Positions 2,993 through 45,769 of a stretch of DNA of 64,000 nt are shown piece by piece. The notes below the pieces were generated by a model. That model ran no database searches. It had not been told where the DNA came from and worked only from the letters and a program-made list of their open reading frames with translations. Source of the DNA: Eledone cirrhosa. Taxonomy: Eukaryota. The translations under genes and the position numbers were made by a program. The stretch is from NCBI GenBank assembly GCA_964016885.1, contig OZ024743.1, positions 126,976,001 to 127,040,000 of the forward strand, in the 5' to 3' direction. Each line of letters begins with the position of its first letter. Within the stretch, counting starts at the first letter, position 1.

Positions 2993-5900
2993 CTCCTTTA
3001 TATACAAATAACTGTGGTACACAACAATATAAACAGTAGCTGTTGTACACTACATTATTACCACAAACTGTGCTATAATATATTATCATCACTAGGTGCA
3101 GTATAAATCATTATAATCACTGGCTGAGCTATAATACATTATCAACACTAGCTGTGGTATAATGCATTATCAACACTGGCTGTGGTATAATACATTATCA
3201 ACACTGGCTGAGCTATAATACATTATCAACACTAGCTGTGGTATAATGCATTATCAACACTGGCTGTGGTATAATACATTATCAACACTGGCTGTGGTAT
3301 AATACATTATCAACACTAGCTGTGGTATAATGCATTATCAACACTGGCTGTGGTATAATACATTATCAACACTGGCTGTGATATAATGCATTATCAACAC
3401 TGGCTGTGGTATAATACATTATCAACACTAGCGGTGGTATAATGCATTATCAACACTGGCTGTGGTATAATACATTATCAACACTAGCTGTGGTATAATG
3501 CATTATCAACACTGGCTGTGGTATAATACATTATCAACACTAGCTGTGGTATAATGGATTATCAACACTGGCTGTGGTATAATACATTATCAACAGTGGC
3601 TGTGGTATAATGCATTATCAACAGTGGCTGTGGTATAATGCATTATCAACACTAGCTGTCGTATAATACATTATCAACACTGGCTGTGGTATAATGCTTT
3701 ATCAACACTGGCTGTGGTATAATACAATATCAACACTGGCTGTGGTATAATGCATTATCAACACTGGCTGTGGTATAATACATTATCAACACTAGCTGTG
3801 GTATAATACATTATCAACACTAGCTGTGGTATAATGCATTATCAACACTGGCTGTGATATAATGCATTATCAAAACTAGCTGTGATATAATGCATTATCA
3901 AAACTAGCTGTGGTATAATGCATTATCAACACTAGCTGTGGTATAATACATTATCAACGCTGGCTGTGATTGTTTGTACTACATTATCAACACTGGCTGT
4001 GGTATAATGCATTATCAACGCTGGCTGTGGTATAATGCTTTATCAACACTGGCTGTGGTATAATACATTATCAACACTGGCTGTGGTATAATGCATTATC
4101 TACACTGGCTGTGGTATAATGCATTATCAACGCTAGCTGTGGTATAATGCATTATCAACGCTAGCTGTGGTATAATGCATTATCAACGCTAGCTGTGGTA
4201 TAATGCATTATCAACGCTGGCTGTGGTATAATGCATTATCAACACTGGCGGTGGTATAATGCATTATCAACACTGGCTGTGGTATAATGCATTATCAACG
4301 CTGGCTGTGGTATAATGCATTATCAACACTGGCTGTGGTATAATACATTATCAACACTTGCTGTGGTATAATGCATTATCAACACTAGCTGTGGTATAAT
4401 ACATTATCAACACTGGCTGTGGTATGATGCATTATCAACAGTGGCTGTAGTATAATGCATTATTAACACTGGCTGTGGTATAATGCATTATCAAATGCAG
4501 GTGCGGTATAATGCATTATCAACACTGGCTGTGGTATAATGCATTATCAACACTGGCTGTGGTATAATACATTATCAACAGTGGCTGTGGTATAATGCAT
4601 TATCAACGCTGGCTGTGGTATAATGCATTATCAACACTGGCTGTGGTATAATACATTATCAACACTGTCTGTGGTATAATACATTATCAACACTAGCTGT
4701 GGTATAATGCATTATCAACACTGGCTGTGATATAATGCATTATCAACACTGGCTGTGGTATAATACATTTTCAACAGTGGCTGTGGTATAATGCATTATC
4801 AACAGTGGCTGTGGTATAATGCATTATCAACACTAGCTGTCATATAATACATTATCAACACTGGCTGTGGTATAATGCTTTATCAACACTCGCTGTGGTA
4901 TAATACAATATCAACACTGGCTGTGGTATAATGCATTATCAACACTGGCTGTGGTATAATACATTATCAACACTAGCTGTGGTATAATGCATTATCAACA
5001 CTGGCTGTGATATAATGCATTATCAAAACTAGCTGTGATATAATGCATTATCAAAACTAGCTGTGGTATAATGCATTATCAACACTAGCTGTGGTATAAT
5101 ACATTATCAACGCTGGCTGTGATTGTTTGTACTACATTATCAACACTGGCTGTGGTATAATGCATTATCAACGCTGGCTGTGGTATAATGCTTTATCAAC
5201 ACTGGCTGTGGTATAATACATTATAAACACTGGCTGTGGTATAATGCATTATCTACACTGGCTGTGGTATAATGCATTATCAACGCTAGCTGTGGTATAA
5301 TGCATTATCAACGCTAGCTGTGGTATAATGCATTATCAACGCTGGCTGTGGTATAATGCATTATCAACACTGGCTGTGGTATAATGCATTATCAACACTG
5401 GCTGTGGTATAATGCATTATCAACACTGGCTGTGGTATAATGCATTATCAATGCTGGCTGTGGTATAATGCATTATCAATGCTGGCTGTGGTATAATAAA
5501 TTATCAACACTGGCTGTGGTATAATACATTATCAACACTTGCTGTGGTATAATGCATTATCAACACTAGCTGTGGTATAATACATTATCAACACTGGCTG
5601 TGGTATGATGCATTTTCAACAGTGGCTGTAGTATAATGCATTATCAACACTGGCTGTGGTATAATGCATTATTAACACTGGCTGTGGTATAATGCATTAT
5701 CAAATGCAGGTGCGGTATAATGCATTATCAACACTGGCTGTGGTATAATGCATTATCAACAGTGGCTGTGGTATAATGCATTATCAACAGTGGCTGTGGT
5801 ATAATGCATTATCAACGCTGGCTGTGGTATAATGCATTATCAACACTGGCTGTGGTATATTACATTATCAACACTAGCTGTGGTATAATACATTATCAAC

Positions 5901-8900
5901 ACTGGCTGTGGTATAATGCATTATCAACACTGTCTGTGGTATAATGCATTATCAACAGTGGCTGTAGTATAATGCATTATAAACGCTGGCTGTGGTATAA
6001 TATATTATCAACACTGGCTGTGGTATAATGCATTATTAACACTGGCTGTGGTATAATGCATTATCAAATGTAGGTGTGGTATAATGCATTATCAACACTG
6101 GCTGTGGTATAATGCATTATCAACAGTGGCTGTGGTATAATGCATTATCAACGCTGGCTGTGGTATAATACATTATCAACACTAGCTGTTGTATAATACA
6201 TTATCAATGCTGGCTGTAGTATAATGCATTATCAACACTAGCTGTGGTATAATACATTATCAATGCTGGCTGTGGTATAATGCATTATCAACACTGGCTG
6301 TGGTATAATGCATTATCAACACTGGCTGTGGTATAATACATTATCAACAGTGGCTGTGGTATAATGCATTATCAACAGTGGCTGTGGTATAATGCATTAT
6401 CAACGCTGGCTGTGGTATAATGCATTATCAACACTGGCTGTGGTATAATGCATTATCAACACTGGCTGTGGTATAATACATTATCAACACTAGCTGTGGT
6501 ATAATACATTATCAACACTAGCTGTAGTATAATACATTATCAACACTGGCTGTGGTATAATGCATTATCAACACTGGCTGTGGTATAATGCATTATCAAC
6601 AGTGGCTGTAGTATAATGCATTATAAACGCTGGCTGTGGTATAATATATTATCAACACTGGCTGTGGTATAATGCATTATTAACAATGGCTGTGGTATAA
6701 TGCATTATCAAAATTAGGTGTGGTATAATGCATTATCAACACTGGCTGTGGTATAATACATTATCAACAGTGGCTGTGGTATAATGCATTATCAACACTG
6801 GCTGTGGTATAATGCATTATCAACGCTGGCTGTGGTATAATACATTATCAACACTGGCTGTGGTATAATACATTATCAACACTAGCAGTGGTATAATACA
6901 TTATCAATGCTGGCTGTGGTATAATGCATTATCAACACTAGCTGTGGTATAATACATTATCAACACTAGCTGTGGTATAATACATTATCAATGCTGGCTG
7001 TGGTATAATGCATTATCAACACTGGCTGTGGTATAATACATTATCAACACTGGCTGTGGTATAATACATTATCAACACTGGCTGTGGTATAATACATTAT
7101 CAACACTGACTGTGGTATAATGCATTATCAACACTGGCTGTGATATAATACATTATCAACACTGGCTGTGGTATAATGCATTATCAACACTGCCTGTGGT
7201 ATAATGCATTATCAACACTGGCTGTGGTATAATGCATTATCAACACTGGCTGTGGTATAATACATTATCAACACTAGCTGTGGTATAATACATTATCAAC
7301 ACTAGCTGTGGTATAATACATTATCAACACTAGCTGTGGTATAATACATTATCAATGCTGGCTGTGGTATAATGCATTATCAACACTAGCTGTGGTATAA
7401 TGCATTATCAACACTAGCTGTGGTATAATACATTATCAATGCTGGCTGTGGTATAATGCATTATCAACACTGGCTGTGGTATAATACATTATCAACACTG
7501 GCTGTGGTATAATACATTATCAACACTGGCTGTGGTATAATACATTATCAACACTGGCTGTGGTATAATGCATTATCAACACTGGCTGTGGTATAATGCA
7601 TTATCAACACTGGCTGTGGTATAATGCATTATCAATACTGGCTGTGGTATAATACATTATCAACACTGGCTGTGGTATAATACATTATCAACACTGGCTG
7701 TGGTATAATACATTATCAACACTAGCTGTGGTATAATGCATTATCAACACTGGCTGTGGTATAATGCATTATCAACAGTGGCTGTGGTATAATGCATTAT
7801 CAACAGTGGCTGTGGTATAATGCATTATCAACACTAGCTGTGGTATAATGCATTATCAACACTAGCTGTGGTATAATGCATTATAAACAGTGGCTGTGGT
7901 ATAATACATTATCAACACTAGCTGTGGTATAATACATTATCAACACTAGCTGTGGTATAATACATTATCAACACTGGCTGTGGTATAATGCATTATCAAC
8001 ACTGGCTGTGGTATAATACATTATCAACACTAGCTGTGGTATAATGCATTATCAACACTGACTGTGGTATAATGCATTATCAACACTAGCTGTGGTATAA
8101 TGCATTATCAACACTGGCTGTGGTATAATGCATTATCAACACTGGCTGTGGTATAATACATTATCAACACTGGCTGTTGTATAATACATTATCAACACTG
8201 GCTGTGGTATAACACATTATCAACACTGGCTGTGGTATAATACATTATCAACACTGGCTGTGGTGTAACGCATTATCCACACTGGCTGTGGTATAACACA
8301 TTATCAACAGTGGCTGTGGTATAATGCATTATCAACACTGGCTATGGTATAATACATTATCAACACTGGCTATGGTATAATACATTATCAACACTGGCTG
8401 TAGTATAATACATTATCAACACTGGCTGTAGTATAATACATTATCAACACTGGCTGTGGTATAATACATTATCAACACTGGCTGTGGTATAATGCATTAT
8501 CAACACTGGCTATGGTATAATACATTATCAACACTGGCTGAAGTATAATATATTATCAACACTGGCTGTGGTATAATACATTATCAACACTGGCTGTGGT
8601 ATAATGCATTATCAACACTGGCTATGTATAATACATTATCAACACTGGCTATGGTATAATACATTATCAACACTGGCTGTGGTATAATACATTATCAACA
8701 CTGGCTGTAGTATAATACATTATCAACACTGGCTGTAGTATAATACATTATCAACACTGGCTGTGGTATAATACATTATCAACACTGGCTGTAGTATAAT
8801 GCATTATCAACACTGGCTGTGGTATAATACATTATCAACACTGGCTGTGGTATAATACATTATCAACACTGGCTGAAGTATAATATATTATCAACACTGA

Positions 8901-10537
8901 CTGTGGTATAATACATTATCAACACTAGCTGTGGTATAAGACATTATCAATGCTGGCTGTTGTATAATGCATTATCAACACTAGCTGTGGTATAATTCAT
9001 TATCAATGATGGCTGTGGTATAATACATTATCAACACTGGCTGTGGGATAATACATTATCAACACTGGCTGTGGGATAATGCATTATCAACACAAGCTGT
9101 GGTATAATGTATTATCAACACTGGTTTTGGTATAATGCATTATCAACACTGGTTGTGGTATAATACATTATCAACGCTGGCTGTGGTATAATGCATTATC
9201 AACACTGGCTGTGGTATAATACATTATCAACACTGGCTGTGGTATAATACATTATCAACACTGGCTGTGGTATAATACATTATCAACACTGGCTGTGGTA
9301 TAATACATTATCAACACTGGCTGTGGTATAATACATTATCAACACTGGATGTGGTATAATGCATTATAAACACTGGCTGTGGTATAATGCATTATCAATA
9401 GTGGCTGTCGTATAATGCATTATCAACATTAGCTGTCGTATAATGCATTATCAACATTAGCTGTGGTATAATGCATTATCAACACTGGCTGTGGTATAAT
9501 ACATTATCAACACTGGCTGTGGTATAATACATTATCAACACTGGCTGTGGTATAAGACATTATCAACAGTGGCTGTGGTATAATACATTATCAACACTGG
9601 CTGTCGTATAATGCATTATCAACACTGGCTGTGGTATAATGCATTATCAACAGTGGCTGTGGTATAATACATTATCAACACTGGCTGTGGTATAATACAT
9701 TATCAACGCTGGCTGTGGTATAATACATTATCAACGCTGGCTGTGGTATAATGCATTATCAAACCTGGCTGTGGTATAATACATTATCAACACTAGCTGT
9801 GGTATAATGCATTATCAACACTAGCTGTGGTATAATGCATTATAAACACTGGCTGTGGTATAATACATTATCAACACTAGCTGTGGTATAATACATTATC
9901 AACACTAGCTGTGGTATAATACATTATCAACACTGGCTGTGGTATAATGCATTATCAACATTGGCTGTGCTATAATGCATTATCAACACTAGCTGTGGTA
10001 TAATGCTTTATCAACACTAGCTGTGGTATAATGCTTTATCAACACTAGCTGTGGTATAACACATTATCAACACTAGCTGTGGTATAATACATAATCAACA
10101 CTAGCTGTGGTATAATACATAATCAACACTAGCTGTGGTATAATGCATTATCAACACTGGCTGTGGTATAATGCATTATCAACACTGGCTGTGGTATAAT
10201 GCATTATCAACACTGGCTGTGGTATCATGCATTATCAACACTGGCTGTGGTATAATGCATTATCAACACTGGCTGTGGTATAATGCATTATCAACACTGG
10301 CTGTGGTATAATGCATTATCAACACTGGCTGTGGTATAATGCATTATCAACACTGACTGTGGTATAATGCATTATCAACAGTGGCTGTGGTATAATAAAT
10401 TATCAACACTGGCTGTGGTATAATACATTATCCATGCTGGCTGTGGTATAATACATTATCCATGCTGGCTGTGGTATAATACATTATCCATGCTGGCTGT
10501 GGTATAATACATTATCCATGCTGGCTGTGGTATAATG

Positions 10538-10761
10538 TATTATACCACAGCCAGTGTTGATAATGTATTATACCACAGCTAGTGTTGATAATGCGTTATA
10601 CCACAGCCACTGTTGATAATGCATTATACCACAGCCACTGTTGATAATGCATTATACCACAGCCACTGTTGATAATGCATTATACCACAGCCAGTGTTGA
10701 TAAAGCATTATACCACAGCCAGTGTTGATAATGCATTATACCACAGCCAGTGTTGATAATG
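10538..10761 (-). repeat. Inverted block of 8 satellite monomers (left arm of palindrome 10532-10991), copy 1
   Basis: The + strand switches to TATACCACAGCCAGTGTTGATAATG.. for 224 bp (8 x 28). Both switches occur at ATAATG|TATTAT. Confidence 0.97.
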
Positions 10762-13700
10762 TATTATCAACACTGGCTGTGGTATAATGCATTATCAACA
10801 CTGGATGTGGTATAATGCTTTATCAACACTGGCTGTGGTATAATGCATTATCAACAGTGGCTGTGGTATAATGCATTATCAACAGTGGCTGTGGTATAAT
10901 GCATTATCAACAGTGGCTGTGGTATAACGCATAATCAACACTAGCTGTTGTATAATACATTATCAACACTGGCTGTGGTATAATACATTATCACACTGAC
11001 TGTGGTATAATGCATTATCAACACTGACTGTGGTATAATGCATTATCAACACTAGCTGTGGTATAATGCTTTATCAACACTCGCTGTGGTATAATGCATT
11101 ATCAACACTGGCTGTGGTATAATACATTATCAACACTGGCTGTGGTATAATACATTATCAACGCTGGCTGTGGTATAAAATATTATCAATGCTGGCTGTG
11201 GTATAATGCATTATCAACACTGGCTGTGGTATAATGCATTATCAACACTGGCTGTGGTATAATGCATTATCAACACTGGCTGTGGTGTAACGCATTATCC
11301 ACACTGGCTGTGGTATAACACATTATCAACACTGGCTGTGGTATAATACATTATCAACACTGGCTGTGGCATAACGCATTATCCACACTGGCTGTGGTAT
11401 AACACATTATCAACAGTGGCTCTGGTATAACACATTATCAACACTAGCTGTGGTATAATTCATTATCAATGATGGCTGTGGTATAATACATTATCAACAC
11501 TGGCTGTGGTATAATACATTATCAACACTGGCTGTGGTATAATGCATTATCAACACTGGCTATGGTATAATACATTATCAACACTGGCTATGGTATAATA
11601 CATTATCAACACTGGCTGTAGTATAATACATTATCAACACTGGCTGTAGTATAATACATTATCAACACTGGCTGTGGTATAATACATTATCAACACTGGC
11701 TGTGGTATAATACATTATCAACACTGGCTGTGGTATAAGACATTATCAATGCTGGCTGTTGTATAATGCATTATCAACACTGGCTGTGGTATAATGCATT
11801 ATCAACACTAGCTGTGGTATAATTCATTATCAATGATGGCTGTGGTATAATACATTATCAACACTGGCTGTGGGATAATACATTATCAACACTGGCTGTG
11901 GGATAATGCATTATCAACACAAGCTGTGGTATAATGCATTATCAACACTGGTTTTGGTATAATGCATTATCAACACTGGCTGTGGTATAATGCATTATCA
12001 ACACTGGCTGTGGTATAATACATTATCAACACTGGCTGTGGTATAATACATTATCAACACTGGCTGTGGTATAATACATTATCAACACTGGCTGTGGTAT
12101 AATACATTATCAACACTGGCTGTGGTATAATGCATTATCAACACTGGATGTGGTATAATGCATTATAAACACTGGCTGTGGTATAATGCATTATCAATAG
12201 TGGCTGTCGTATAATGCATTATCAACATTAGCTGTCGTATAATGCATTATCAACATTAGCTGTGGTATAATGCATTATCAACACTGGCTGTGGTATAATA
12301 CATTATCAACACTGGCTGTGGTATAATACATTATCAACACTGGCTGTGGTATAAGACATTATCAACAGTGGCTGTGGTATAATACATTATCAACACTGGC
12401 TGTCGTATAATGCATTATCAACACTGGCTGTGGTATAATGCATTATCAACAGTGGCTGTGGTATAATACATTATCAACACTGGCTGTGGTATAATACATT
12501 ATCAACACTGGCTGTGGTATAATACATTATCAACGCTGGCTGTGGTATAATACATTATCAACGCTGGCTGTGGTATAATGCATTATCAACACTGGCTGTG
12601 GTATAATACATTATCAACACTGGCTGTGGTATAAGACATTATCAATGCTAGGTGTGGTATAATGCATTATCAACACTGGCTGTGGTATAATGCATTATCA
12701 ACACTAGCTGTGGTATAATTCATTATCAATGATGGCTGTGGTATAATACTTTCTCAACACTGGCTATGGTATAATACATTATCAACACTGGCTGTGGGAT
12801 AATGCATTATCAACACAAGCTGTGGTATAATGCATTATCAACACTGGTTGTGGTATAATGCATTATCAACACTGGTTGTGGTATAATACATTATCAACAC
12901 TGGCTGTGGTATAATGCATTATCAACACTGGCTGTGGTATAATGCATTATCAACAGTGGCTGTCGTATAATGCATTATCAACATTAGCTGTGGTATAATG
13001 CATTATTAACACTAGCTGTGGTATAATGCATTATCAACACTGGCTGTGGTATAATGCATTCTCAACAGTGGCTGTGGTATAATGCATTATCAACACTGGC
13101 TATGGTATAATGCATTATTAACACTGGCTGTGGTATAATACATTATCAACACTGGCCGTGGTATAATACATTATCAACACTGGCCGTGGTATAATACATT
13201 ATCAACACTGGCTGTGGTATAATACATTATCAACACTGGCTGTGGTATAATGCATTATCAACACTGGCTGTGGTATAATGCATTATCAACACTAGCTGTG
13301 GTATAATTCATTATCAATGATGGCTGTGGAATACATTATCAACACTGGCTGTGGGATAATACATTATCAACACAGGCTGTGGGATAATGCATTATCAACA
13401 TAAGCTGTGGTATAATGCATTATCAACACTGGTTGTGGTATAATGCATTATCAACACTGGTTGTGGTATAATACATTATCAACGCTGGCTGTGGTATAAT
13501 AGATTATCAACGCTGGCTGTGGTATAATGCATTATCAACACTGGCTGTGGTATAATACATTATCAACACTGGCTGTGGTATAATGTATTATCAACACTGG
13601 CTGTGGTATAATACATTATCAACACTGGCTGTGGTATAATGCATTATCAACACTGGATGTGGTATAATGCATTATCAACACTGGCTGTGGTATAATACAT

Positions 13701-15265
13701 TATCAACACTGGCTGTGGTATGATGCATTATCAACAGTGGCTGTGGTATAATGCATTATCAACAGTGGCTGTGGTATAATGCATTATTAACAGTGGCTGT
13801 GGTATAATGCATTATCAACAGTGGCTGTCGTATAATGTATTATCAACAGTGGCTGTGGTATAATGCATTATCAACATTAGCTGTGGTATAATGCATTATC
13901 AACACTGGCTGTGGTATAATACATAATCAACACTGGCTGTGGTATAATGCATTATCAACAGTGGCTGTCGTATAATGCATTATCAACATTAGCTGTGGTA
14001 TAATGCATTATTAACACTAGCTGTGGTATAATGCATTATCAACACTAGCTATGGTATAAGACATTATCAATGCTGGCTGTGGTATAATGCATTATCAACA
14101 CTGGCTGTGGTATAATTCATTATCAACACTAGCTGTGGTATAATTAATTATCAATGATGGCTGTGGTATAATACATTATCAACACTGGCTGTGGGATAAT
14201 GCATTATCAACACAAGCTGTGGTATAATGCATTATCAACACTGGTTGTGGTATAATGCATTATCAACACTGGTTGTGGTATAATACATTATCAACGCTGG
14301 CTGTGGTATAATGCATTATCAACACTGGCTGTGGTATAATACATTATCAACACTGGCTGTGGTATAATACATTATCAACGCTGGCTGTGGTATAATACAT
14401 TATCAACGCTGGCTGTGGTATAATGCATTATCAAACCTGGCTGTGGTATAATACATTATCAACACTAGCTGTGGTATAATGCATTATCAACACTAGCTGT
14501 GGTATAATGCATTATAAACACTGGCTGTGGTATAATACATTATCAACACTAGCTGTGGTATAATACATTATCAACACTAGCTGTGGTATAATACATTATC
14601 AACACTGGCTGTGGTATAATGCATTATCAACATTGGCTGTGCTATAATGCATTATCAACACTAGCTGTGGTATAATGCTTTATCAACACTAGCTGTGGTA
14701 TAATGCTTTATCAACACTAGCTGTGGTATAACACATTATCAACACTAGCTGTGGTATAATACATAATCAACACTAGCTGTGGTATAATACATAATCAACA
14801 CTGGCTGTGGTATAATGCATTATCAACACTGGCTGTGGTATAATGCATTATCAACACTGGCTGTGGTATCATGCATTATCAACACTGGCTGTGGTATAAT
14901 GCATTATCAACACTGGCTGTGGTATAATGCATTATCAACACTGGCTGTGGTATAATGCATTATCAACACTGGCTGTGGTATAATGCATTATCAACACTGA
15001 CTGTGGTATAATGCATTATCAACACTGGCTGTGGTATAATAAATTATCAACACTGGCTGTGGTATAATAAATTATCAACACTGGCTGTGGTATAATACAT
15101 TATCAATGCTGGCTGTGGTATAATACATTATCAATGCTGGCTGTGGTATAATACATTATCCATGCTGGCTGTGGTATAATACATTATCCATGCTGGCTGT
15201 GGTATAATACATTATCCATGCTGGCTGTGGTATAATACATTATCCATGCTGGCTGTGGTATAATG

Positions 15266-15489
15266 TATTATACCACAGCCAGTGTTGATAATGTATTATA
15301 CCACAGCTAGTGTTGATAATGCGTTATACCACAGCCACTGTTGATAATGCATTATACCACAGCCACTGTTGATAATGCATTATACCACAGCCACTGTTGA
15401 TAATGCATTATACCACAGCCAGTGTTGATAAAGCATTATACCACAGCCAGTGTTGATAATGCATTATACCACAGCCAGTGTTGATAATG
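15266..15489 (-). repeat. Inverted block of 8 monomers, copy 2
   Basis: Same sequence, variant order and junctions as copy 1; 224 bp. Confidence 0.97.
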
Positions 15490-18400
15490 TATTATCAACA
15501 CTGGCTGTGGTATAATGCATTATCAACACTGGATGTGGTATAATGCTTTATCAACACTGGCTGTGGTATAATGCATTATCAACAGTGGCTGTGGTATAAT
15601 GCATTATCAACAGTGGCTGTGGTATAATGCATTATCAACAGTGGCTGTGGTATAACGCATAATCAACACTAGCTGTTGTATAATACATTATCAACACTGG
15701 CTGTGGTATAATACATTATCACACTGACTGTGGTATAATGCATTATCAACACTGACTGTGGTATAATGCATTATCAACACTAGCTGTGGTATAATGCTTT
15801 ATCAACACTCGCTGTGGTATAATGCATTATCAACACTGGCTGTGGTATAATACATTATCAACACTGGCTGTGGTATAATACATTATCAACACTGGCTGTG
15901 GTATAATACATTATCAACGCTGGCTGTGGTATAAAATATTATCAATGCTGGCTGTGGTATAATGCATTATCAACACTGGCTGTGGTATAATGCATTATCA
16001 ACACTGGCTGTGGTATAATGCATTATCAACACTGGCTGTGGTGTAACGCATTATCCACACTGGCTGTGGTATAACACATTATCAACACTGGCTGTGGTAT
16101 AATACATTATCAACACTGGCTGTGGCATAACGCATTATCCACACTGGCTGTGGTATAACACATTATCAACAGTGGCTGTGGTATAACACATTATCAACAG
16201 TGGCTGTGGTATAACACATTATCAACACTAGCTGTGGTATAATTCATTATCAATGATGGCTGTGGTATAATACATTATCAACACTGGCTGTGGTATAATA
16301 CATTATCAACACTGGCTGTGGTATAATGCATTATCAACACTGGCTATGGTATAATACATTATCAACACTGGCTATGGTATAATACATTATCAACACTGGC
16401 TGTAGTATAATACATTATCAACACTGGCTGTAGTATAATACATTATCAACACTGGCTGTGGTATAATACATTATCAACACTGGCTGTGGTATAATACATT
16501 ATCAACACTGGCTGTGGTATAAGACATTATCAATGCTGGCTGTTGTATAATGCATTATCAACACTGGCTGTGGTATAATGCATTATCAACACTAGCTGTG
16601 GTATAATTCATTATCAATGATGGCTGTGGTATAATACATTATCAACACTGGCTGTGGGATAATACATTATCAACACTGGCTGTGGGATAATGCATTATCA
16701 ACACAAGCTGCGGTATAATGCATTATCAACACTGGTTTTGGTATAATGCATTATCAACACTGGCTGTGGTATAATGCATTATCAACACTGGCTGTGGTAT
16801 AATACATTATCAACACTGGCTGTGGTATAATACATTATCAACACTGGCTGTGGTATAATACATTATCAACACTGGCTGTGGTATAATACATTATCAACAC
16901 TGGCTGTGGTATAATGCATTATCAACACTGGATGTGGTATAATGCATTATAAACACTGGCTGTGGTATAATGCATTATCAATAGTGGCTGTCGTATAATG
17001 CATTATCAACATTAGCTGTCGTATAATGCATTATCAACATTAGCTGTGGTATAATGCATTATCAACACTGGCTGTGGTATAATACATTATCAACACTGGC
17101 TGTGGTATAATACATTATCAACACTGGCTGTGGTATAAGACATTATCAACAGTGGCTGTGGTATAATACATTATCAACACTGGCTGTCGTATAATGCATT
17201 ATCAACACTGGCTGTGGTATAATGCATTATCAACAGTGGCTGTGGTATAATACATTATCAACACTGGCTGTGGTATAATACATTATCAACACTGGCTGTG
17301 GTATAATACATTATCAACGCTGGCTGTGGTATAATACATTATCAACGCTGGCTGTGGTATAATGCATTATCAACACTGGCTGTGGTATAATACATTATCA
17401 ACACTGGCTGTGGTATAAGACATTATCAATGCTAGGTGTGGTATAATGCATTATCAACACTGGCTGTGGTATAATGCATTATCAACACTAGCTGTGGTAT
17501 AATTCATTATCAATGATGGCTGTGGTATAATACTTTCTCAACACTGGCTATGGTATAATACATTATCAACACTGGCTGTGGGATAATGCATTATCAACAC
17601 AAGCTGTGGTATAATGCATTATCAACACTGGTTGTGGTATAATGCATTATCAACACTGGTTGTGGTATAATACATTATCAACACTGGCTGTGGTATAATG
17701 CATTATCAACACTGGCTGTGGTATAATGCATTATCAACAGTGGCTGTCGTATAATGCATTATCAACATTAGCTGTGGTATAATGCATTATTAACACTAGC
17801 TGTGGTATAATGCATTATCAACACTGGCTGTGGTATAATGCATTCTCAACAGTGGCTGTGGTATAATGCATTATCAACACTGGCTATGGTATAATGCATT
17901 ATTAACACTGGCTGTGGTATAATACATTATCAACACTGGCCGTGGTATAATACATTATCAACACTGGCCGTGGTATAATACATTATCAACACTGGCTGTG
18001 GTATAATACATTATCAACACTGGCTGTGGTATAATGCATTATCAACACTGGCTGTGGTATAATGCATTATCAACACTAGCTGTGGTATAATTCATTATCA
18101 ATGATGGCTGTGGAATACATTATCAACACTGGCTGTGGGATAATACATTATCAACACAGGCTGTGGGATAATGCATTATCAACATAAGCTGTGGTATAAT
18201 GCATTATCAACACTGGTTGTGGTATAATGCATTATCAACACTGGTTGTGGTATAATACATTATCAACGCTGGCTGTGGTATAATAGATTATCAACGCTGG
18301 CTGTGGTATAATGCATTATCAACACTGGCTGTGGTATAATACATTATCAACACTGGCTGTGGTATAATGTATTATCAACACTGGCTGTGGTATAATACAT

Positions 18401-21400
18401 TATCAACACTGGCTGTGGTATAATGCATTATCAACACTGGATGTGGTATAATGCATTATCAACACTGGCTGTGGTATAATACATTATCAACACTGGCTGT
18501 GGTATGATGCATTATCAACAGTGGCTGTGGTATAATGCATTATCAACAGTGGCTGTGGTATAATGCATTATTAACAGTGGCTGTGGTATAATGCATTATC
18601 AACAGTGGCTGTCGTATAATGTATTATCAACAGTGGCTGTGGTATAATGCATTATCAACATTAGCTGTGGTATAATGCATTATCAACACTGGCTGTGGTA
18701 TAATACATAATCAACACTGGCTGTGGTATAATGCATTATCAACAGTGGCTGTCGTATAATGCATTATCAACATTAGCTGTGGTATAATGCATTATTAACA
18801 CTAGCTGTGGTATAATGCATTATCAACACTAGCTATGGTATAAGACATTATCAATGCTGGCTGTGGTATAATGCATTATCAACACTGGCTGTGGTATAAT
18901 TCATTATCAACACTAGCTGTGGTATAATTAATTATCAATGATGGCTGTGGTATAATACATTATCAACACTGGCTGTGGGATAATGCATTATCAACACAAG
19001 CTGTGGTATAATGCATTATCAACACTGGTTGTGGTATAATGCATTATCAACACTGGTTGTGGTATAATACATTATCAACGCTGGCTGTGGTATAATGCAT
19101 TATCAACACTGGCTGTGGTATAATACATTATCAACACTGGCTGTGGTATAATGCATTATCAACAGTGGCTGTGGTATAATGCATTATCAACAGTGGCTGT
19201 CGTATAATGCATTATCAACATTAGCTGTGGTATAATGCATTATTAACACTAGCTGTGGTATAATGCATTATCAACACTGGCTGTGGTATAATGCATTCTC
19301 AACAGTGGCTGTGGTATAATGCATTATAAACACTGGCTATGGTATAATGCATTATCAACACTGGCTGTGGTATAATGCATTATCAACACTGGCTGTGGTA
19401 TAATACATTATCAACACTGGCTGTGGTATAATACATTATCAACACTGGCTGTGGTATAATACATTATCAACACTGGCTGTGGTATAATACATTATCAACA
19501 CTGGCTGTGGTATAATGCATCATCAACACTGGCTGTGGTATAATGCATTATCAACACTGGCTGTGGTATAATGCATTATCAACACTGGCTGTGGTATAAT
19601 GCATTATCAACACTAGCTGTGGTATAATTCATTATCAATGATGGCTGTGGTATAATACATTATCAACACTGGCTGTGGGATAATGCATTATCAACACAAG
19701 CTGTGGTATAATGCATTATCAACACTGGTTGTGGTATAATGCATTATCAACACTGGTTGTGGTATAATACATTATCAACGCTGGTTGTGGTATAATACAT
19801 TATCAACGCTGGCTGTGGTATAATACATTATCAACGCTGGCTGTGGTATAATACATTATCAACGCTGGCTGTGGTATAATGCATTATCAACACTGGCTGT
19901 GGTATAATACATTATCAACACTGGCTGTGGTATAATACATTATCAACACTGGCTGTGGTATAATATATTATCAACACTGGCTGTGGTATAATATATTATC
20001 AACACTGGCTGTGGTATAATACATTATCAACACTGGCTGTGGTATAATGCATTATCAACACTGGATGTGGTATAATGCATTATCAACACTGGCTGTGGTA
20101 TAATACATTATCAACACTGGCTGTGGTATAATGCATTATCAACAGTGGCTGTGGTATAATGCATTATCAACAGTGGCTGTGGTATAATGCATTATCAACA
20201 GTGGCTGTCGTATAATGCATTATCAACAGTGGCCCTGGTATAATGCATTATCAACATTAGCTGTGGTATAATGCATTATCAACAGTAGCTGTCGTATAAT
20301 ACATTATCAACACTGGCTGTGGTATAATACATTATCAACACTGGCTGTGGTATAATGCATTATCAACAGTGGCTGTCGTATAATGCATTATCAACATTAG
20401 CTGTGGTATAATGCATTATTAACACTAGCTGTGGTATAATGCATTATCAACACTGGCTGTGGTATAATACATTATCAACACTGGCTGTGGTGTAATGCAT
20501 TATCAACACTGGCTGTGGTATAATGCATTATCAACACTGGCTATGGTATAATACATTATTAACACTGGCTGTGGTATAATACATTATCAACACTGGCTGT
20601 GGTATAATACATTATCAACACTGGCTGTGGTATAATACATTATCAACACTGGCTGTGGTATAATACATTATCAACACTGGCTGTGGTATAATGCATTATC
20701 AACACTGGCTGTGGTATAATGCATTATCAACACTGGCTATGGTATAATGCATTATCAACACTGGCTGTGGTATAATACATTATCAACACTGGCTGTGGTA
20801 TAATACATTATCAACACTGGCTGTGGTATAATACATTATCAACACTGGCTGTGGTATAATACATTATCAATACTGGCTGTGGTATAATGCATTATCAACA
20901 CTGGCTGTGGTATAATGCATTATCAACAGTGGCTGTGGTATAATGCATTATCAACAGTGGCTGTGGTATAATGCATTATCAACAGTGGCTGTGGTATAAC
21001 GCATTATCAACACTAGCTGTGGTATAATACATTATCAACACTGGCTGTGGTATAATACATTATCAACAGTGGCTGTGGTATAATGCATTATCAACATTAG
21101 CTGTGGTATAATGCATTATCAACACAAGCTGTGGTATAATGCATTATCAACACTGGTTGCGGTATAATACATTATCAATGCTGGCTGTGGTATAATGCAT
21201 TATCAACACTGGCTGTGGTATAATGCATTATCAACACTGGATGTGGTATAATGCATTATCAACACTGGCTGTGGTATAATACATTATCAACACTGGCTGT
21301 GGTATAATACATTATCAACACTGGCTGTGGTATAATGCATTATCAGCAGTGGCTGTGGTATAATGCATTATCAACAGTGGCTGTCGTATAATGCATTATC

Positions 21401-23437
21401 AACAGTGGCTGTGGTATAATGCATTATCAACATTAGCTGTGGTATAATGCATTATCAACATTAGCTGTGGTATAACGCATTATCAACAGTAGCTGTCGTA
21501 TAATGCATTATCAACAGTGGCTGTCGTATAATGCATTATCAACATTAGCTGTGGTATAATGCATTATTAACACTAGCTGTGGTATAATGCATTATCAACA
21601 CTGGCTGTGGTATAATGCATTATCAACAGTGGCTGTGGTATAATACATTATCAACACTGGCTGTGGTATAATACATTATCAACACTGGCTGAAGTATAAT
21701 ATATTATCAACACTGGCTGTGGTATAATACATTATCAACACTGGCTGTGGTATAAGACATTATCAATGCTGGCTGTGGTATAATGCATTATCAACACTGG
21801 CTGTGGTATAATGCATTATCAACACTAGCTGTGGTATAATTCATTATCAATGATGGCAGTGGTATAATACATTATCAACACTGGCTGTGGGATAATACAT
21901 TATCAACACTGGCTGTGGGATAATGCATTATCAACACTGGCTTTGGTATAATGCATTATCAACACTGGTTGTGGTATAATACATTATCAACGCTGGCTGT
22001 GGTATAATGCATTATCAACACTGGCTGTGGTATAATACATTATCAACACTGGCTGTGGTATAATACATTATCAACACTGGCTGTGGTATAATACATTATC
22101 AACACTGGCTGTGGTATAATACATTATCAACACTGGATGTGGTATAATGCATTATAAACACTGGCTGTGGTATAATGCATTATCAATAGTGGCTGTCGTA
22201 TAATGCATTATCAACATTAGCTGTCGTATAATGCATTATCAACATTAGCTGTGGTATAATGCATTATCAACACTGGCTGTGGTATAATACATTATCAACA
22301 CTGGCTGTGGTATAATACATTATCAACACTGGCTGTGGTATAAGACATTATCAACAGTGGCTGTGGTATAATACATTATCAACACTGGCTGTCGTATAAT
22401 GCATTATCAACACTGGCTGTGGTATAATGCATTATCAACAGTGGCTGTGGTATAATACATTATCAACACTGGCTGTGGTATAATACATTATCAACACTGG
22501 CTGTGGTATAATACATTATCAACGCTGGCTGTGGTATAATACATTATCAACGCTGGCTGTGTTATAATGCATTATCAAACCTGGCTGTGGTATAATACAT
22601 TATCAACACTAGCTGTGGTATAATGCATTATCAACACTAGCTGTGGTATAATGCATTATAAACACTGGCTGTGGTATAATACATTATCAACACTAGCTGT
22701 GGTATAATACATTATCAACACTAGCTGTGGTATAATACATTATCAACACTGGCTGTGGTATAATGCATTATCAACATTGGCTGTGCTATAATGCATTATC
22801 AACACTAGCTGTGGTATAATGCTTTATCAACACTAGCTGTGGTATAATGCTTTATCAACACTAGCTGTGGTATAACACATTATCAACACTAGCTGTGGTA
22901 TAATACATAATCAACACTAGCTGTGGTATAATACATAATCAACACTAGCTGTGGTATAATGCATTATCAACACTGGCTGTGGTATAATGCATTATCAACA
23001 CTGGCTGTGGTATAATGCATTATCAACACTGGCTGTGGTATAATGCATTATCAACACTGGCTGTGGTATAATGCATTATCAACACTGGCTGTGGTATAAT
23101 GCATTATCAACACTGGCTGTGGTATAATGCATTATCAACACTGGCTGTGGTATAATGCATTATCAACACTGGCTGTGGTATAATAAATTATCAACACTGG
23201 CTGTGGTATAATAAATTATCAACACTGGCTGTGGTATAATAAATTATCAACGCTGGCTGTGGTATAATACATTATCAACGCTGGCTGTGGTATAATACAT
23301 TATCAATGCTGGCTGTGGTATAATACATTATCCATGCTGGCTGTGGTATAATACATTATCCATGCTGGCTGTGGTATAATACATTATCCATGCTGGCTGT
23401 GGTATAATACATTATCCATGCTGGCTGTGGTATAATG

Positions 23438-23661
23438 TATTATACCACAGCCAGTGTTGATAATGTATTATACCACAGCTAGTGTTGATAATGCGTTATA
23501 CCACAGCCACTGTTGATAATGCATTATACCACAGCCACTGTTGATAATGCATTATACCACAGCCACTGTTGATAATGCATTATACCACAGCCAGTGTTGA
23601 TAAAGCATTATACCACAGCCAGTGTTGATAATGCATTATACCACAGCCAGTGTTGATAATG
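23438..23661 (-). repeat. Inverted block of 8 monomers, copy 3
   Basis: Same sequence, variant order and junctions as copy 1; 224 bp. Confidence 0.97.
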
Positions 23662-26600
23662 TATTATCAACACTGGCTGTGGTATAATGCATTATCAACA
23701 CTGGATGTGGTATAATGCTTTATCAACACTGGCTGTGGTATAATGCATTATCAACAGTGGCTGTGGTATAATGCATTATCAACAGTGGCTGTGGTATAAT
23801 GCATTATCAACAGTGGCTGTGGTATAACGCATAATCAACACTAGCTGTTGTATAATACATTATCAACACTGGCTGTGGTATAATACATTATCACACTGAC
23901 TGTGGTATAATGCATTATCAACACTGACTGTGGTATAATGCATTATCAACACTAGCTGTGGTATAATGCTTTATCAACACTCGCTGTGGTATAATGCATT
24001 ATCAACACTGGCTGTGGTATAATACATTATCAACACTGGCTGTGGTATAATACATTATCAACGCTGGCTGTGGTATAAAATATTATCAATGCTGGCTGTG
24101 GTATAATGCATTATCAACACTGGCTGTGGTATAATGCATTATCAACACTGGCTGTGGTATAATGCATTATCAACACTGGCTGTGGTATAATACATTATCA
24201 ACACTGGCTGTTGTATAATACATTATCAACACTGGCTGTGGTGTAACGCATTATCCACACTGGCTGTGGTATAACACATTATCAACACTGGCTGTGGTAT
24301 AATACATTATCAACACTGGCTGTGGCGTAACGCATTATCCACACTGGCTGTGGTATAACACATTATCAACAGTGGCTGTGGTATAACACATTATCAACAC
24401 TAGCTGTGGTATAATTCATTATCAATGATGGCTGTGGTATAATACATTATCAACACTGGCTGTGGTATAATACATTATCAACACTGGCTGTGGTATAATG
24501 CATTATCAACACTGGCTATGGTATAATACATTATCAACACTGGCTGTAGTATAATACATTATCAACACTGGCTGTAGTATAATACATTATCAACACTGGC
24601 TGTGGTATAATGCATTATCAACACTAGCTGTGGTATAATTCATTATCAATGATGGCTGTGGTATAATACATTATCAACACTGGCTGTGGGATAATACATT
24701 ATCAACACTGGCTGTGGGATAATGCATTATCAACACAAGCTGTGGTATAATGCATTATCAACACTGGTTTTGGTATAATGCATTATCAACACTGGCTGTG
24801 GTATAATGCATTATCAACACTGGCTGTGGTATAATACATTATCAACACTGGCTGTGGTATAATACATTATCAACACTGGCTGTGGTATAATACATTATCA
24901 ACACTGGCTGTGGTATAATACATTATCAACACTGGCTGTGGTATAATGCATTATCAACACTGGATGTGGTATAATGCATTATAAACACTGGCTGTGGTAT
25001 AATGCATTATCAATAGTGGCTGTCGTATAATGCATTATCAACATTAGCTGTCGTATAATGCATTATCAACATTAGCTGTGGTATAATGCATTATCAACAC
25101 TGGCTGTGGTATAATACATTATCAACACTGGCTGTGGTATAATACATTATCAACACTGGCTGTGGTATAAGACATTATCAACAGTGGCTGTGGTATAATA
25201 CATTATCAACACTGGCTGTCGTATAATGCATTATCAACACTGGCTGTGGTATAATGCATTATCAACAGTGGCTGTGGTATAATACATTATCAACACTGGC
25301 TGTGGTATAATACATTATCAACACTGGCTGTGGTATAATACATTATCAACGCTGGCTGTGGTATAATACATTATCAACGCTGGCTGTGGTATAATGCATT
25401 ATCAACACTGGCTGTGGTATAATACATTATCAACACTGGCTGTGGTATAAGACATTATCAATGCTAGGTGTGGTATAATGCATTATCAACACTGGCTGTG
25501 GTATAATGCATTATCAACACTAGCTGTGGTATAATTCATTATCAATGATGGCTGTGGTATAATACTTTCTCAACACTGGCTATGGTATAATACATTATCA
25601 ACACTGGCTGTGGGATAATGCATTATCAACACAAGCTGTGGTATAATGCATTATCAACACTGGTTGTGGTATAATGCATTATCAACACTGGTTGTGGTAT
25701 AATACATTATCAACACTGGCTTGGTATAATGCATTATCAACACTGGCTGTGGTATAATGCATTATCAACAGTGGCTGTCGTATAATGCATTATCAACATT
25801 AGCTGTGGTATAATGCATTATTAACACTAGCTGTGGTATAATGCATTATCAACACTGGCTGTGGTATAATGCATTCTCAACAGTGGCTGTGGTATAATGC
25901 ATTATCAACACTGGCTATGGTATAATGCATTATTAACACTGGCTGTGGTATAATACATTATCAACACTGGCCGTGGTATAATACATTATCAACACTGGCC
26001 GTGGTATAATACATTATCAACACTGGCTGTGGTATAATACATTATCAACACTGGCTGTGGTATAATGCATTATCAACACTGGCTGTGGTATAATGCATTA
26101 TCAACACTAGCTGTGGTATAATTCATTATCAATGATGGCTGTGGAATACATTATCAACACTGGCTGTGGGATAATACATTATCAACACAGGCTGTGGGAT
26201 AATGCATTATCAACATAAGCTGTGGTATAATGCATTATCAACACTGGTTGTGGTATAATGCATTATCAACACTGGTTGTGGTATAATACATTATCAACGC
26301 TGGCTGTGGTATAATAGATTATCAACGCTGGCTGTGGTATAATGCATTATCAACACTGGCTGTGGTATAATACATTATCAACACTGGCTGTGGTATAATG
26401 TATTATCAACACTGGCTGTGGTATAATACATTATCAACACTGGCTGTGGTATAATGCATTATCAACACTGGATGTGGTATAATGCATTATCAACACTGGC
26501 TGTGGTATAATACATTATCAACACTGGCTGTGGTATGATGCATTATCAACAGTGGCTGTGGTATAATGCATTATCAACAGTGGCTGTGGTATAATGCATT

Positions 26601-29600
26601 ATTAACAGTGGCTGTGGTATAATGCATTATCAACAGTGGCTGTCGTATAATGTATTATCAACAGTGGCTGTGGTATAATGCATTATCAACATTAGCTGTG
26701 GTATAATGCATTATCAACACTGGCTGTGGTATAATACATAATCAACACTGGCTGTGGTATAATGCATTATCAACAGTGGCTGTCGTATAATGCATTATCA
26801 ACATTAGCTGTGGTATAATGCATTATTAACACTAGCTGTGGTATAATGCATTATCAACACTAGCTATGGTATAAGACATTATCAATGCTGGCTGTGGTAT
26901 AATGCATTATCAACACTGGCTGTGGTATAATTCATTATCAACACTAGCTGTGGTATAATTCATTATCAATGATGGCTGTGGTATAATACATTATCAACAC
27001 TGGCTGTGGGATAATGCATTATCAACACAAGCTGTGGTATAATGCATTATCAACACTGGTTGTGGTATAATGCATTATCAACACTGGTTGTGGTATAATA
27101 CATTATCAACGCTGGCTGTGGTATAATGCATTATCAACACTGGCTGTGGTATAATACATTATCAACACTGGCTGTGGTATAATGCATTATCAACAGTGGC
27201 TGTGGTATAATGCATTATCAACAGTGGCTGTCGTATAATGCATTATCAACATTAGCTGTGGTATAATGCATTATTAACACTAGCTGTGGTATAATGCATT
27301 ATCAACACTGGCTGTGGTATAATGCATTCTCAACAGTGGCTGTGGTATAATGCATTATAAACACTGGCTATGGTATAATGCATTATCAACACTGGCTGTG
27401 GTATAATGCATTATCAACACTGGCTGTGGTATAATACATTATCAACACTGGCTGTGGTATAATACATTATCAACACTGGCTGTGGTATAATACATTATCA
27501 ACACTGGCTGTGGTATAATGCATCATCAACACTGGCTGTGGTATAATGCATTATCAACACTGGCTGTGGTATAATGCATTATCAACACTGGCTGTGGTAT
27601 AATGCATTATCAACACTAGCTGTGGTATAATTCATTATCAATGATGGCTGTGGTATAATACATTATCAACACTGGCTGTGGGATAATGCATTATCAACAC
27701 AAGCTGTGGTATAATGCATTATCAACACTGGTTGTGGTATAATGCATTATCAACACTGGTTGTGGTATAATACATTATCAACGCTGGTTGTGGTATAATA
27801 CATTATCAACGCTGGCTGTGGTATAATACATTATCAACGCTGGCTGTGGTATAATACATTATCAACGCTGGCTGTGGTATAATGCATTATCAACACTGGC
27901 TGTGGTATAATACATTATCAACACTGGCTGTGGTATAATACATTATCAACACTGGCTGTGGTATAATATATTATCAACACTGGCTGTGGTATAATATATT
28001 ATCAACACTGGCTGTGGTATAATACATTATCAACACTGGCTGTGGTATAATGCATTATCAACACTGGATGTGGTATAATGCATTATCAACACTGGCTGTG
28101 GTATAATACATTATCAACACTGGCTGTGGTATAATGCATTATCAACAGTGGCTGTGGTATAATGCATTATCAACAGTGGCTGTGGTATAATGCATTATCA
28201 ACAGTGGCTGTCGTATAATGCATTATCAACAGTGGCCCTGGTATAATGCATTATCAACATTAGCTGTGGTATAATGCATTATCAACAGTAGCTGTCGTAT
28301 AATACATTATCAACACTGGCTGTGGTATAATACATTATCAACACTGGCTGTGGTATAATGCATTATCAACAGTGGCTGTCGTATAATGCATTATCAACAT
28401 TAGCTGTGGTATAATGCATTATTAACACTAGCTGTGGTATAATGCATTATCAACACTGGCTGTGGTATAATACATTATCAACACTGGCTGTGGTATAATG
28501 CATTATCAACACTGGCTGTGGTATAATGCATTATCAACACTGGCTATGGTATAATACATTATTAACACTGGCTGTGGTATAATACATTATCAACACTGGC
28601 TGTGGTATAATACATTATCAACACTGGCTGTGGTATAATACATTATCAACACTGGCTGTGGTATAATACATTATCAACACTGGCTGTGGTATAATGCATT
28701 ATCAACACTGGCTGTGGTATAATGCATTATCAACACTGGCTATGGTATAATGCATTATCAACACTGGCTGTGGTATAATACATTATCAACACTGGCTGTG
28801 GTATAATACATTATCAACACTGGCTGTGGTATAATACATTATCAACACTGGCTGTGGTATAATACATTATCAATACTGGCTGTGGTATAATGCATTATCA
28901 ACACTGGCTGTGGTATAATGCATTATCAACAGTGGCTGTGGTATAATGCATTATCAACAGTGGCTGTGGTATAATGCATTATCAACAGTGGCTGTGGTAT
29001 AACGCATTATCAACACTAGCTGTGGTATAATACATTATCAACACTGGCTGTGGTATAATGCATTATCAACATTAGCTGTGGTATAATGCATTATCAACAC
29101 AAGCTGTGGTATAATGCATTATCAACACTGGTTGCGGTATAATACATTATCAATGCTGGCTGTGGTATAATGCATTATCAACACTGGCTGTGGTATAATG
29201 CATTATCAACACTGGATGTGGTATAATGCATTATCAACACTGGCTGTGGTATAATACATTATCAACACTGGCTGTGGTATAATACATTATCAACACTGGC
29301 TGTGGTATAATGCATTATCAGCAGTGGCTGTGGTATAATGCATTATCAACAGTGGCTGTCGTATAATGCATTATCAACAGTGGCTGTGGTATAATGCATT
29401 ATCAACATTAGCTGTGGTATAATGCATTATCAACATTAGCTGTGGTATAACGCATTATCAACAGTAGCTGTCGTATAATGCATTATCAACAGTGGCTGTC
29501 GTATAATGCATTATCAACATTAGCTGTGGTATAATGCATTATTAACACTAGCTGTGGTATAATGCATTATCAACACTGGCTGTGGTATAATGCATTATCA

Positions 29601-30587
29601 ACAGTGGCTGTGGTATAATACATTATCAACACTGGCTGTGGTATAATACATTATCAACACTGGCTGAAGTATAATATATTATCAACACTGGCTGTGGTAT
29701 AATACATTATCAACACTGGCTGTGGTATAAGACATTATCAATGCTGGCTGTGGTATAATGCATTATCAACACTGGCTGTGGTATAATGCATTATCAACAC
29801 TAGCTGTGGTATAATTCATTATCAATGATGGCAGTGGTATAATACATTATCAACACTGGCTGTGGGATAATACATTATCAACACTGGCTGTGGGATAATG
29901 CATTATCAACACTGGCTTTGGTATAATGCATTATCAACACTGGTTGTGGTATAATACATTATCAACGCTGGCTGTGGTATAATGCATTATCAACACTGGC
30001 TGTGGTATAATACATTATCAACGCTGGCTGTGGTATAATACATTATCAACACTGGCTGTGGTATAATACATTATCAACACTGGCTGTGGTATAATGCATT
30101 ATCAACACTGGATGTGGTATAATGCATTATAAACACTGGCTGTGTTATAATACATTATCAACACTGGCTGTGGTATAATGCATTATCAATAGTGGCTGTC
30201 GTATAATGCATTATCAACATTAGCTGTCGTATAATGCATTATCAACATTAGCTGTGGTATAATGCATTATCAACACTGGCTGTGGTATAATACATTATCA
30301 ACACTGGCTGTGGTATAATACATTATCAACACTGGCTGTGGTATAATACATTATCAACACTGGCTGTGGTATAAGACATTATCAACAGTGGCTGTGGTAT
30401 AATGCATTATCAACACTGGCTGTGGTATAATGCATTATCAACACTGGCTGTGGTATAATGCATTATCAACACTGGCTGTGGTATAATACATTATCAACAC
30501 TGGCTGTGGTATAATACATTATCAACACTGGCTGTGGTATAATACATTATCAACACTGGCTGTGGTATAATGCATTATCAACACTGG

Positions 30588-42200: not shown

Positions 42201-42245
42201 CTGGCTGTGGTATAATACATTATCCATGCTGGCTGTGGTATAATG

Positions 42246-42497
42246 TATTATACCACAGCCAGTGTTGATAATGTATTATACCACAGCTAGTGTTGATAAT
42301 GCGTTATACCACAGCCACTGTTGATAATGCATTATACCACAGCCACTGTTGATAATGCATTATACCACAGCCACTGTTGATAATGCATTATACCACAGCC
42401 AGTGTTGATAAAGCATTATACCACAGCCAGTGTTGATAATGCATTATACCACAGCCAGTGTTGATAATGCATTATACCACAGCCAGTGTTGATAATG
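42246..42497 (-). repeat. Inverted block of 9 monomers, copy 4
   Basis: Same junctions and variant order, but 252 bp (9 x 28), with one extra consensus monomer next to the palindrome centre. Confidence 0.95.
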
Positions 42498-45400: not shown

Positions 45401-45769
45401 TAATGCATTATCAACAGTGGCTGTGGTATAATGCATTATCAACAGTGGCTGTGGTATAATGCATTATCAACAGTGGCTGTGGTATAATGCATTATCAACA
45501 GTGGCTGTCGTATAATGTATTATCAACAGTGGCTGTGGTATAATGCATTATCAACATTAGCTGTGGTATAATGCATTATCAACACTGGCTGTGGTATAAT
45601 ACATAATCAACACTGGCTGTGGTATAATGCATTATCAACAGTGGCTGTCGTATAATGCATTATCAACATTAGCTGTGGTATAATGCATTATTAACACTAG
45701 CTGTGGTATAATGCATTATCAACACTAGCTATGGTATAAGACATTATCAATGCTGGCTGTGGTATAATG

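Follow-up and report, generated by a model that had tools for sequence, protein, structure and literature searches.

How does a block of a tandem array come to read backwards, and is such a block a copy of its neighbour? The base-level origin of direction changes in satellite arrays usually stays unresolved; at the locus described here both junctions are readable. The window, i.e. the whole stretch of DNA analysed (64,000 nucleotides of contig OZ024743.1 of Eledone cirrhosa), is filled almost completely by a tandem array with a period of 28 bp (59 kb, approximately 2,123 copies), which is bordered at both ends by non-satellite DNA inside the window. The architecture of the array is one of nested duplications, and direct duplications are common in it. 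Seven open reading frames of at least 80 amino acids were found in the window, all of them in the flanks and none inside the array. None of these seven had a Pfam match, the Rfam search gave no match, the monomer pattern was absent from the viral contigs searched for it, and a keyword search of the literature returned no description of this 28-bp satellite. The flanks of the array resemble what we take to be animal dispersed repeats.

Each monomer contains a five-base inverted repeat, ATAAT-NN-ATTAT. For the monomer map the array was cut at the centre of this dyad, which resulted in 2,122 segments, comprising 2,108 full monomers and 14 segments of other length. Inverted orientation was found for 33 of the 2,108 full monomers, and the inverted blocks, four in number (centres at 10761, 15489, 23661, and 42497), span 224-252 bp within the 59-kb forward array. 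Monomer variants are named by position in the monomer and base; 2T is the TAAAGC/GCTTTA variant and 16A the GGATG variant. The coordinates of the features are collected in Table 1.

Table 1. Features of the satellite array and of the palindromes in the window, with positions counted from the first base of the window.
Feature	Position	Strand	Remarks
Satellite array	3012..62440	+	28-bp period, ~2,123 monomers, nested higher-order duplications of 0.6 to ~10 kb
Left flank, copy 1	10426..10537	+	Four forward monomers, all of a rare type with three variants; no mirror of the inverted block (26 mismatches/224)
Inverted arm, copy 1	10532..10761	-	Eight monomers between dyad centres 10538-10761
Left junction, copy 1	10532..10543	.	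Forward to reverse, on the 12-bp dyad of the monomer; reads ATAATGTATTAT
Centre junction, copy 1	10756..10767	.	Reverse to forward; ATAATGTATTAT dyad whose central pair 10761/10762 is G·T; hairpin loop of 4 nt predicted
Forward arm, copy 1	10762..10991	+	Holds all three non-consensus arm differences (10805, 10933, 10949)
27-bp monomer	10986..11012	+	1-bp deletion; directly 3' of the forward arm, follows all four copies
Palindrome copy 2	15260..15719	.	Both arms identical to copy 1
Forward paralogue of the arm	20834..21057	+	Non-palindromic, differs from the inverted arm at 3 positions; further paralogues begin at 37766 and 28837
Palindrome copy 3	23432..23891	.	Both arms identical to copy 1
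Right-flank marker	30881..30936	+	Marker of the palindrome unit, palindrome missing; also at 32225
Palindrome copy 4	42240..42727	.	Nine inverted monomers

Copy 1 is a palindrome of 460 bases in which eight reversed monomers are a near-perfect mirror of the next eight. The initial annotation had described it in this way, and our analysis confirmed both arms and found exactly the three arm mismatches and the central GT that it had counted. Of the 230 positions in each arm 226 pair, and the inverted-repeat similarity is 98% over 234 nt. Mismatches are the G·T at the centre (10761/10762) and the position pairs 10718/10805, 10590/10933, and 10574/10949. From dyad centre to dyad centre the inverted tract measures 224 bp, which is 8.0 monomers, and the 28-bp phase is unchanged across it.

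Random monomer pairs of this array are 91% alike, so any inversion in it yields long imperfect stems. With 98% identity between the arms, the explanation that this is how every satellite inversion appears was ruled out. When the inverted block was reverse-complemented and compared with 1,949 forward blocks of eight monomers, the mean was 16.55 +/- 3.42 mismatches, against 4 mismatches to the adjacent arm; the arms are thus closer to each other than to random eight-monomer blocks, as had been proposed. Seven of the 1,949 forward blocks lie within 4 mismatches of the inverted arm, and four of these are the adjacent arms. When inversion in place was simulated for eight-monomer blocks, 4 or fewer mismatches to the neighbour were reached at none of 1,729 positions. 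Shorter blocks inverted in place reached the same rate in 12 out of 1,807 cases for six monomers and in 32 out of 1,768 for seven monomers, mostly in runs of common monomers. At the left junction the stem carries 26 mismatches in 224 positions in copy 1 and 26-31 across all four copies.

The rare variants that had been noted as paired across the centre do pair, but most of the pattern is shared with other parts of the array. The variant run 12G-12G-12G27C has nine occurrences, of which five are outside palindromes. The plain 2T monomer (TAAAGC/GCTTTA, otherwise consensus) is the only variant confined to the arms, where it pairs in register, and it is absent from the paralogous blocks. Among these blocks, those at 20834 and 37766 show 3 mismatches to the inverted arm and are closer to it than the adjacent arm with its 4, whereas the block at 28837 equals the adjacent arm with 4 mismatches.

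A single event site, as implied by the first description, was not what the array contains. It holds four copies, which point to one old event that was amplified. In copy 4 one consensus monomer is added in the inverted arm near the centre, one substitution is found at the end of the forward arm, and the distal left flank differs. Common to all four copies are the three arm mismatches and the 1-bp deletion just beyond the forward arm, and the four left junctions are identical over the 44 bases compared, as are the four centre junctions. On the left side, exact identity between copies stops 104-158 bases before the left junction, and on the right side 224-525 bases past the centre. As the array is built of nested duplications, it is likely that the palindrome arose once, that its arms diverged, and that it was then carried along to four places by larger duplications. 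The right-flank marker occurs six times, four times with the palindrome and twice without it. At both latter sites (30881 and 32225) it is joined to a context found elsewhere about 3 kb upstream, an arrangement for which a single deletion of approximately 3 kb that took out the palindrome in one lineage would be the likely cause.

The initial annotation had placed both strand switches on the dyad of the monomer with the 28-bp register kept. Dyad and register were recovered, whereas the dyad itself was misread: all 8 junction dyads read ATAATGTATTAT, which corresponds to the frequent imperfect dyad (AC centre) in inverted orientation and not to the perfect dyad ATAATGCATTAT. The breakpoints are resolved to within the dyad halves only. 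Among the forward dyads the central dinucleotide is AC in 812 out of 2,057 and GT in 13 out of 2,057. In its 11 forward contexts the monomer type of the left flank always ends in A|C, with the bar at the dyad centre, and an ending in G|T is seen only at the four junctions. Hence, both GT dinucleotides can be read as inverted AC, with no extra mutation. Probably the inverted tract includes both central dinucleotides, with the crossovers in the ATAAT and ATTAT halves, as judged from the bases at the junctions. Several forward GT dyads sit just before the marker carried by the forward arm (16A) elsewhere in the array. No pre-event allele, in which the left flank would be joined straight to the forward arm, was found in the monomer map of the window.

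A local double template switch at the monomer dyad is the best explanation of this structure and is partly supported. This part of the original proposal stood, whereas the strict intra-strand version, i.e. fold-back synthesis, is less favoured in view of the central GT. We give an even chance to one double inter-strand switch at the five-base dyad with likely passenger multiplication to four copies; fold-back and the other routes taken together each appear unlikely, and to a similar degree, and an artefact very improbable. Any ATTAT of the other parental strand could serve as annealing site for a nascent end at ATAAT. After the left flank the nascent strand would leave its template in the dyad and anneal eight dyads ahead on the opposite strand, which would be copied backwards for 224 bases, the 2-nt spacer of the dyad of departure among them, before the return to this dyad. 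The net product would be a gain of 224 bases with none lost, the register kept and both AC spacers converted to GT, and a mirror-image event on the other strand would yield the same product. A GT at the centre is the expected outcome when the spacer is AC, the common form, and becomes inverted, and a single event of this kind would account for all bases at the junctions. An inverted repeat with inverted spacer corresponds to the four-point type 1-3-4-2 / 3-1-2-4, which accounts for 23% of human-chimp events in the accessible text of PMC5453318, and spacer inversion is stated there to require an inter-strand switch. The arm differences at three bases would have arisen afterwards, probably via conversion with other monomers. 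The pattern in the array shows that multi-kilobase duplications moved the unit to four places and that one copy gained a monomer; one lineage likely lost the palindrome. The inter-strand assignment hinges on two bases, and elsewhere in the array the marker does have a forward GT dyad near it. The choice among switch, fold-back and in-place inversion is one that we infer.

Counted against the inter-strand switch were, among other points, the placement of all three arm differences in the forward arm, one of them (10805) where the array normally has it, and the existence of two distant forward blocks that are closer to the inverted arm than its neighbour is (3 versus 4 mismatches).

Intra-strand fold-back, in which the nascent strand copies eight monomers of itself and rejoins the template at another dyad, maybe with deletion of monomers, would produce the same arms and the same register. 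It is the strongest single competitor and nevertheless unlikely. Here the spacer stays uninverted, so that a rare GT dyad (13 of 2,057) would be needed rather than an AC dyad (812 of 2,057). Such forward GT dyads do exist, several of them just before the marker of the forward arm, and the centre could be an uninverted GT. A deletion would be needed as well, because the left-flank type ends in A|C in all 11 forward cases, and a hairpin with a 5-bp stem and a 2-nt loop would presumably be a weak primer. Among human short-range switches, the portion of PMC5453318 available to us reports no evidence of intra-strand events. Fold-back is therefore less economical than an inter-strand switch, though possible.

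That the block has another origin than a one-step copy of its present neighbour is rather improbable, be it in-place inversion of the first copy of an older direct duplication or copying from a paralogous template now elsewhere or lost. Inversion in place between ATAAT and ATTAT would be expected to leave exactly the same junction bases. It would also account for all three differences being in one arm, a one-sided placement that by itself has a one-in-four chance, and for one of them being seemingly old. The latter is the 16A at 10805. Monomers with 16A precede a 12G monomer within four units in 41 out of 42 cases, compared with 551 out of 1,806 in the background, in counts that include copies which are not independent. 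On the pattern in the array, the 16A at 10805 may be older than the switch event, and a later reversion in the inverted arm would then be needed. Its origin would be either conversion of the forward arm from an aligned paralogue, loss from the inverted arm, or a template other than the neighbour. Paralogues at 3 mismatches exist and direct duplications are common in the array, both in favour of such an origin of the block, but the arm-private variant is missing from the paralogues, and with the adjacent arms making up 4 of the 7 blocks within 4 mismatches (out of 1,949) chance adjacency is unlikely. For an in-place inversion, length and position would need to coincide with those of the duplicated unit, and this would apply to 0 of 1,729 present eight-monomer blocks.

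Origin-dependent inverted repeat amplification (ODIRA) resembles our case in a leading-to-lagging strand switch at inverted repeats of approximately 5 nt and in palindromic junctions, as far as described in the available text of PMC10766186. The same text gives three copies, two palindromic junctions, spacers of 40-80 nt and an origin for ODIRA, while at the present locus the 5-nt repeat is combined with a spacer of 2 nt, the copies number two, and a single junction is palindromic. Membership of this class was ruled out on copy number and spacer, the left junction not being palindromic. An eroded ODIRA-like triplication, in forward-inverted-forward order and with replacement of its left copy in a subsequent unequal exchange, is improbable. 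Unequal exchange is frequent in the array, and secondary erosion of palindromic junctions has been proposed in the same text (PMC10766186). However, the left forward copy is missing, with 26-31 mismatches per 224 at all four left junctions, and flank-specific variants begin 17 bases from the junction centre, which leaves a narrow crossover window. Moreover, the requirement of 40-80 nt spacers and of an origin within the segment, as given there, stands against a 2-nt spacer and a segment of 224 bp.

A sequencing or assembly artefact, either a fold-back chimeric read or an amplification chimera, is very improbable. From a fold-back read one switch is expected, with arms identical save random errors. 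The palindrome shows two switches with return to register, a left junction without mirror, three arm mismatches shared by the four copies, and two versions (8 and 9 monomers) with different distal flanks. Four copies in different flanks, three of them identical and one with a ninth monomer, make a single chimeric read unlikely. In favour of an artefact is a tandem pair of 5,656 bp within the array, in which 202 out of 202 monomers are identical, so that the array copy number is maybe insecure; also in its favour is the lack of read support, a gap that in itself proves nothing. Six read runs were considered, of which three contain 60-64% of the left-flank words, all three from one sample. The comparison covered the 56-base left junction in four of the six runs (X1, X4, X5, and X6). 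Twelve contigs of X1, which maybe derives from another individual, match over 10532-10565 only, on the inverted side of the junction; six of these continue as ordinary satellite and none crosses the junction. In the RAD runs X4, X5, and X6 no read aligned to the 56-base left junction.

With the inter-strand double switch as the preferred reading, the closest known events are the four-point template switches of PMC5453318. In the accessible text these give an adjacent reverse-complement copy, an inverted repeat with inverted spacer, by one switch-and-return, as would the event proposed here. The feature that the inserted fragment reverse-complements nearby sequence was found here, with 226 out of 230 arm positions pairing. 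In contrast to those events, which were looked for there as short clusters of mutations in unique, complex sequence with the ancestral allele in hand, our tract is 224 bp long, lies in a satellite with the microhomology in every monomer, and has no ancestral allele in the window.

Satellites of Tribolium with macro-dyad symmetries, according to the parts of PMC13081366 and 10.1101/2024.12.02.626372 that are accessible, share with this array the changes of direction and the multiplication of one near-identical inversion site. Conservation of the inversion site across many copies was likewise found here, four left and four centre junctions being identical. On the Tribolium side these sources describe subarrays of kilobases to tens of kilobases, thousands of inversion sites, degenerate subunits, and putative centromeric regions. 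Here the inverted blocks of 224-252 bp fall short of inverted subarrays of several kilobases with a tendency to symmetry. Inversion affects 33 of 2,108 full monomers, the monomers at the junctions are whole and keep the register, and the mirroring of the arms extends to the individual variants. Many inversion breakpoints within satellite arrays are also known from human HSat3 on chromosome 9 and beta-satellite arrays, for which more than 200 are given in the accessible text of 10.1101/2021.07.12.452052. In the available part of 10.64898/2026.07.22.740206, these breakpoints increase in number with array length and are taken as a by-product of array expansion. As far as accessible, these human sources give counts and not junction anatomy, mirroring of neighbours, or breakpoints on a dyad. 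Amplified strand switches in satellites are thus already known from human and Tribolium arrays, and the present locus is a well-resolved further case. An open-access keyword search returned, among the entries listed, no inverted duplication with junctions on a satellite monomer's own dyad. Inversion-site figures in the supplement of PMC13081366 may bear on a precedent for such junctions.

The palindrome is predicted to fold as a 230-bp hairpin or cruciform, in DNA or as an RNA hairpin, and no function would be needed to explain it. For the 460-mer as single-stranded DNA -275.6 kcal/mol and a 4-nt loop were predicted, compared with -201.1 kcal/mol for the left-junction stem and -81 to -83 kcal/mol for three forward-only controls. 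Its 230-nt arms, 98% identity, and 2-nt centre are traits of cruciform-prone palindromes; that long, alike and unspaced arms raise the risk of cruciform formation and breakage is stated in the available text of PMC7999016. Human PATRRs, as described in the same text, resemble the palindrome in length class, high arm identity and an almost complete lack of spacer. Unlike these, the palindrome is known from sequence alone, and it has come through at least three amplifications.

An unlikely wider reading is that the monomer's own dyad seeds strand switches and that the resulting palindrome would be no passenger but a local fragile site driving turnover and higher-order duplication. No differences were found inside the palindrome among three copies, and copy-to-copy changes crowd in the nearest 20 monomers of each flank. 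For copies 1 and 2, nine differing monomers were counted within 20 monomers of the arms and one in the next 116 (Fisher p ~2e-5 in a post hoc comparison). An equal degree of difference was, however, reached by 18-24% of 249 control anchor pairs, drawn from 35 monomer types, for which reason this clustering was set aside as support for fragility. Of 12 anchors at the same copy offset, two reached 9 or more differences.

As it stands, the palindrome is a clean example of known processes. Although palindromes of this kind are regarded as unstable, a 98%-perfect and nearly spacer-less one survived several rounds of amplification in this array. A testable rule follows for this satellite, namely that strand switches should recur at the five-base dyad and in register.

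Monomer segmentation of the array revealed only three independent 1-bp deletions, one of which adjoins the forward arm of the palindrome. It may be a remnant of the proposed template switch at the 12-bp dyad of the monomer that gave rise to the palindrome. The same segmentation identified a 3-bp deletion that tags higher-order copies at five positions, whereas the palindrome is present at four. This surplus is in line with the palindrome having been lost from one lineage.

Sequence features of the array and its left flank (window positions)
Feature	Position	Remark
1-bp deletion monomer	10986-11012; also 15714, 23886, 42722	few bases beyond forward-arm end
3-bp deletion	13337, 18121, 26152, 34465, 44989	higher-order copies
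Tandem pair, 5,656 bp	45770-51425 / 51426-57081	202/202 monomers identical
Exact pair, 1,344 bp	30461/31805	
Exact pair, 588 bp	36506/37094	
Degenerate left edge of array	3012-3110	second dyad, ACAG-TAG-CTGT
Exact tandem duplication, 33 bp	2474-2541	left flank
Near-tandem repeat	~2570-2650	left flank

Monomer-by-monomer comparison within the array showed that the 5,656-bp tandem pair is identical throughout, which would point either to a very recent duplication or to a false assembly duplication. Two shorter exact pairs are of like kind. Satellite contigs from the sequencing run X1, matching the inverted-side half of the left palindrome junction (10532-10565), had word depths of ~86 to 2,900 each. 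Thus, the genome probably contains many more copies of the satellite repeat outside this locus.

At the left edge of the array the second dyad occupies the monomer's other half, and an older form of the monomer may therefore have been made up of two small palindromes. The flank beyond contains two further repeats as well as regions (200-350 and 1290-1650) which we take to resemble decayed non-LTR retrotransposon sequence. A Pfam search with the 7 open reading frames of at least 80 amino acids in the array's flanks yielded no match.

In the whole array, 115 monomers carry a C at monomer position 20 (20C), which generates a CpG. Related monomers, e.g. those at 6171 and 4822, carry 20T or 20C together with 21A and look like deamination products of the 20C variant. 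The 20T difference at 10949, an arm mismatch on the forward-arm side of the palindrome, may be of the same kind. If the 20T and 20C+21A monomers indeed arose by deamination of 20C, this would be a hint of methylation.
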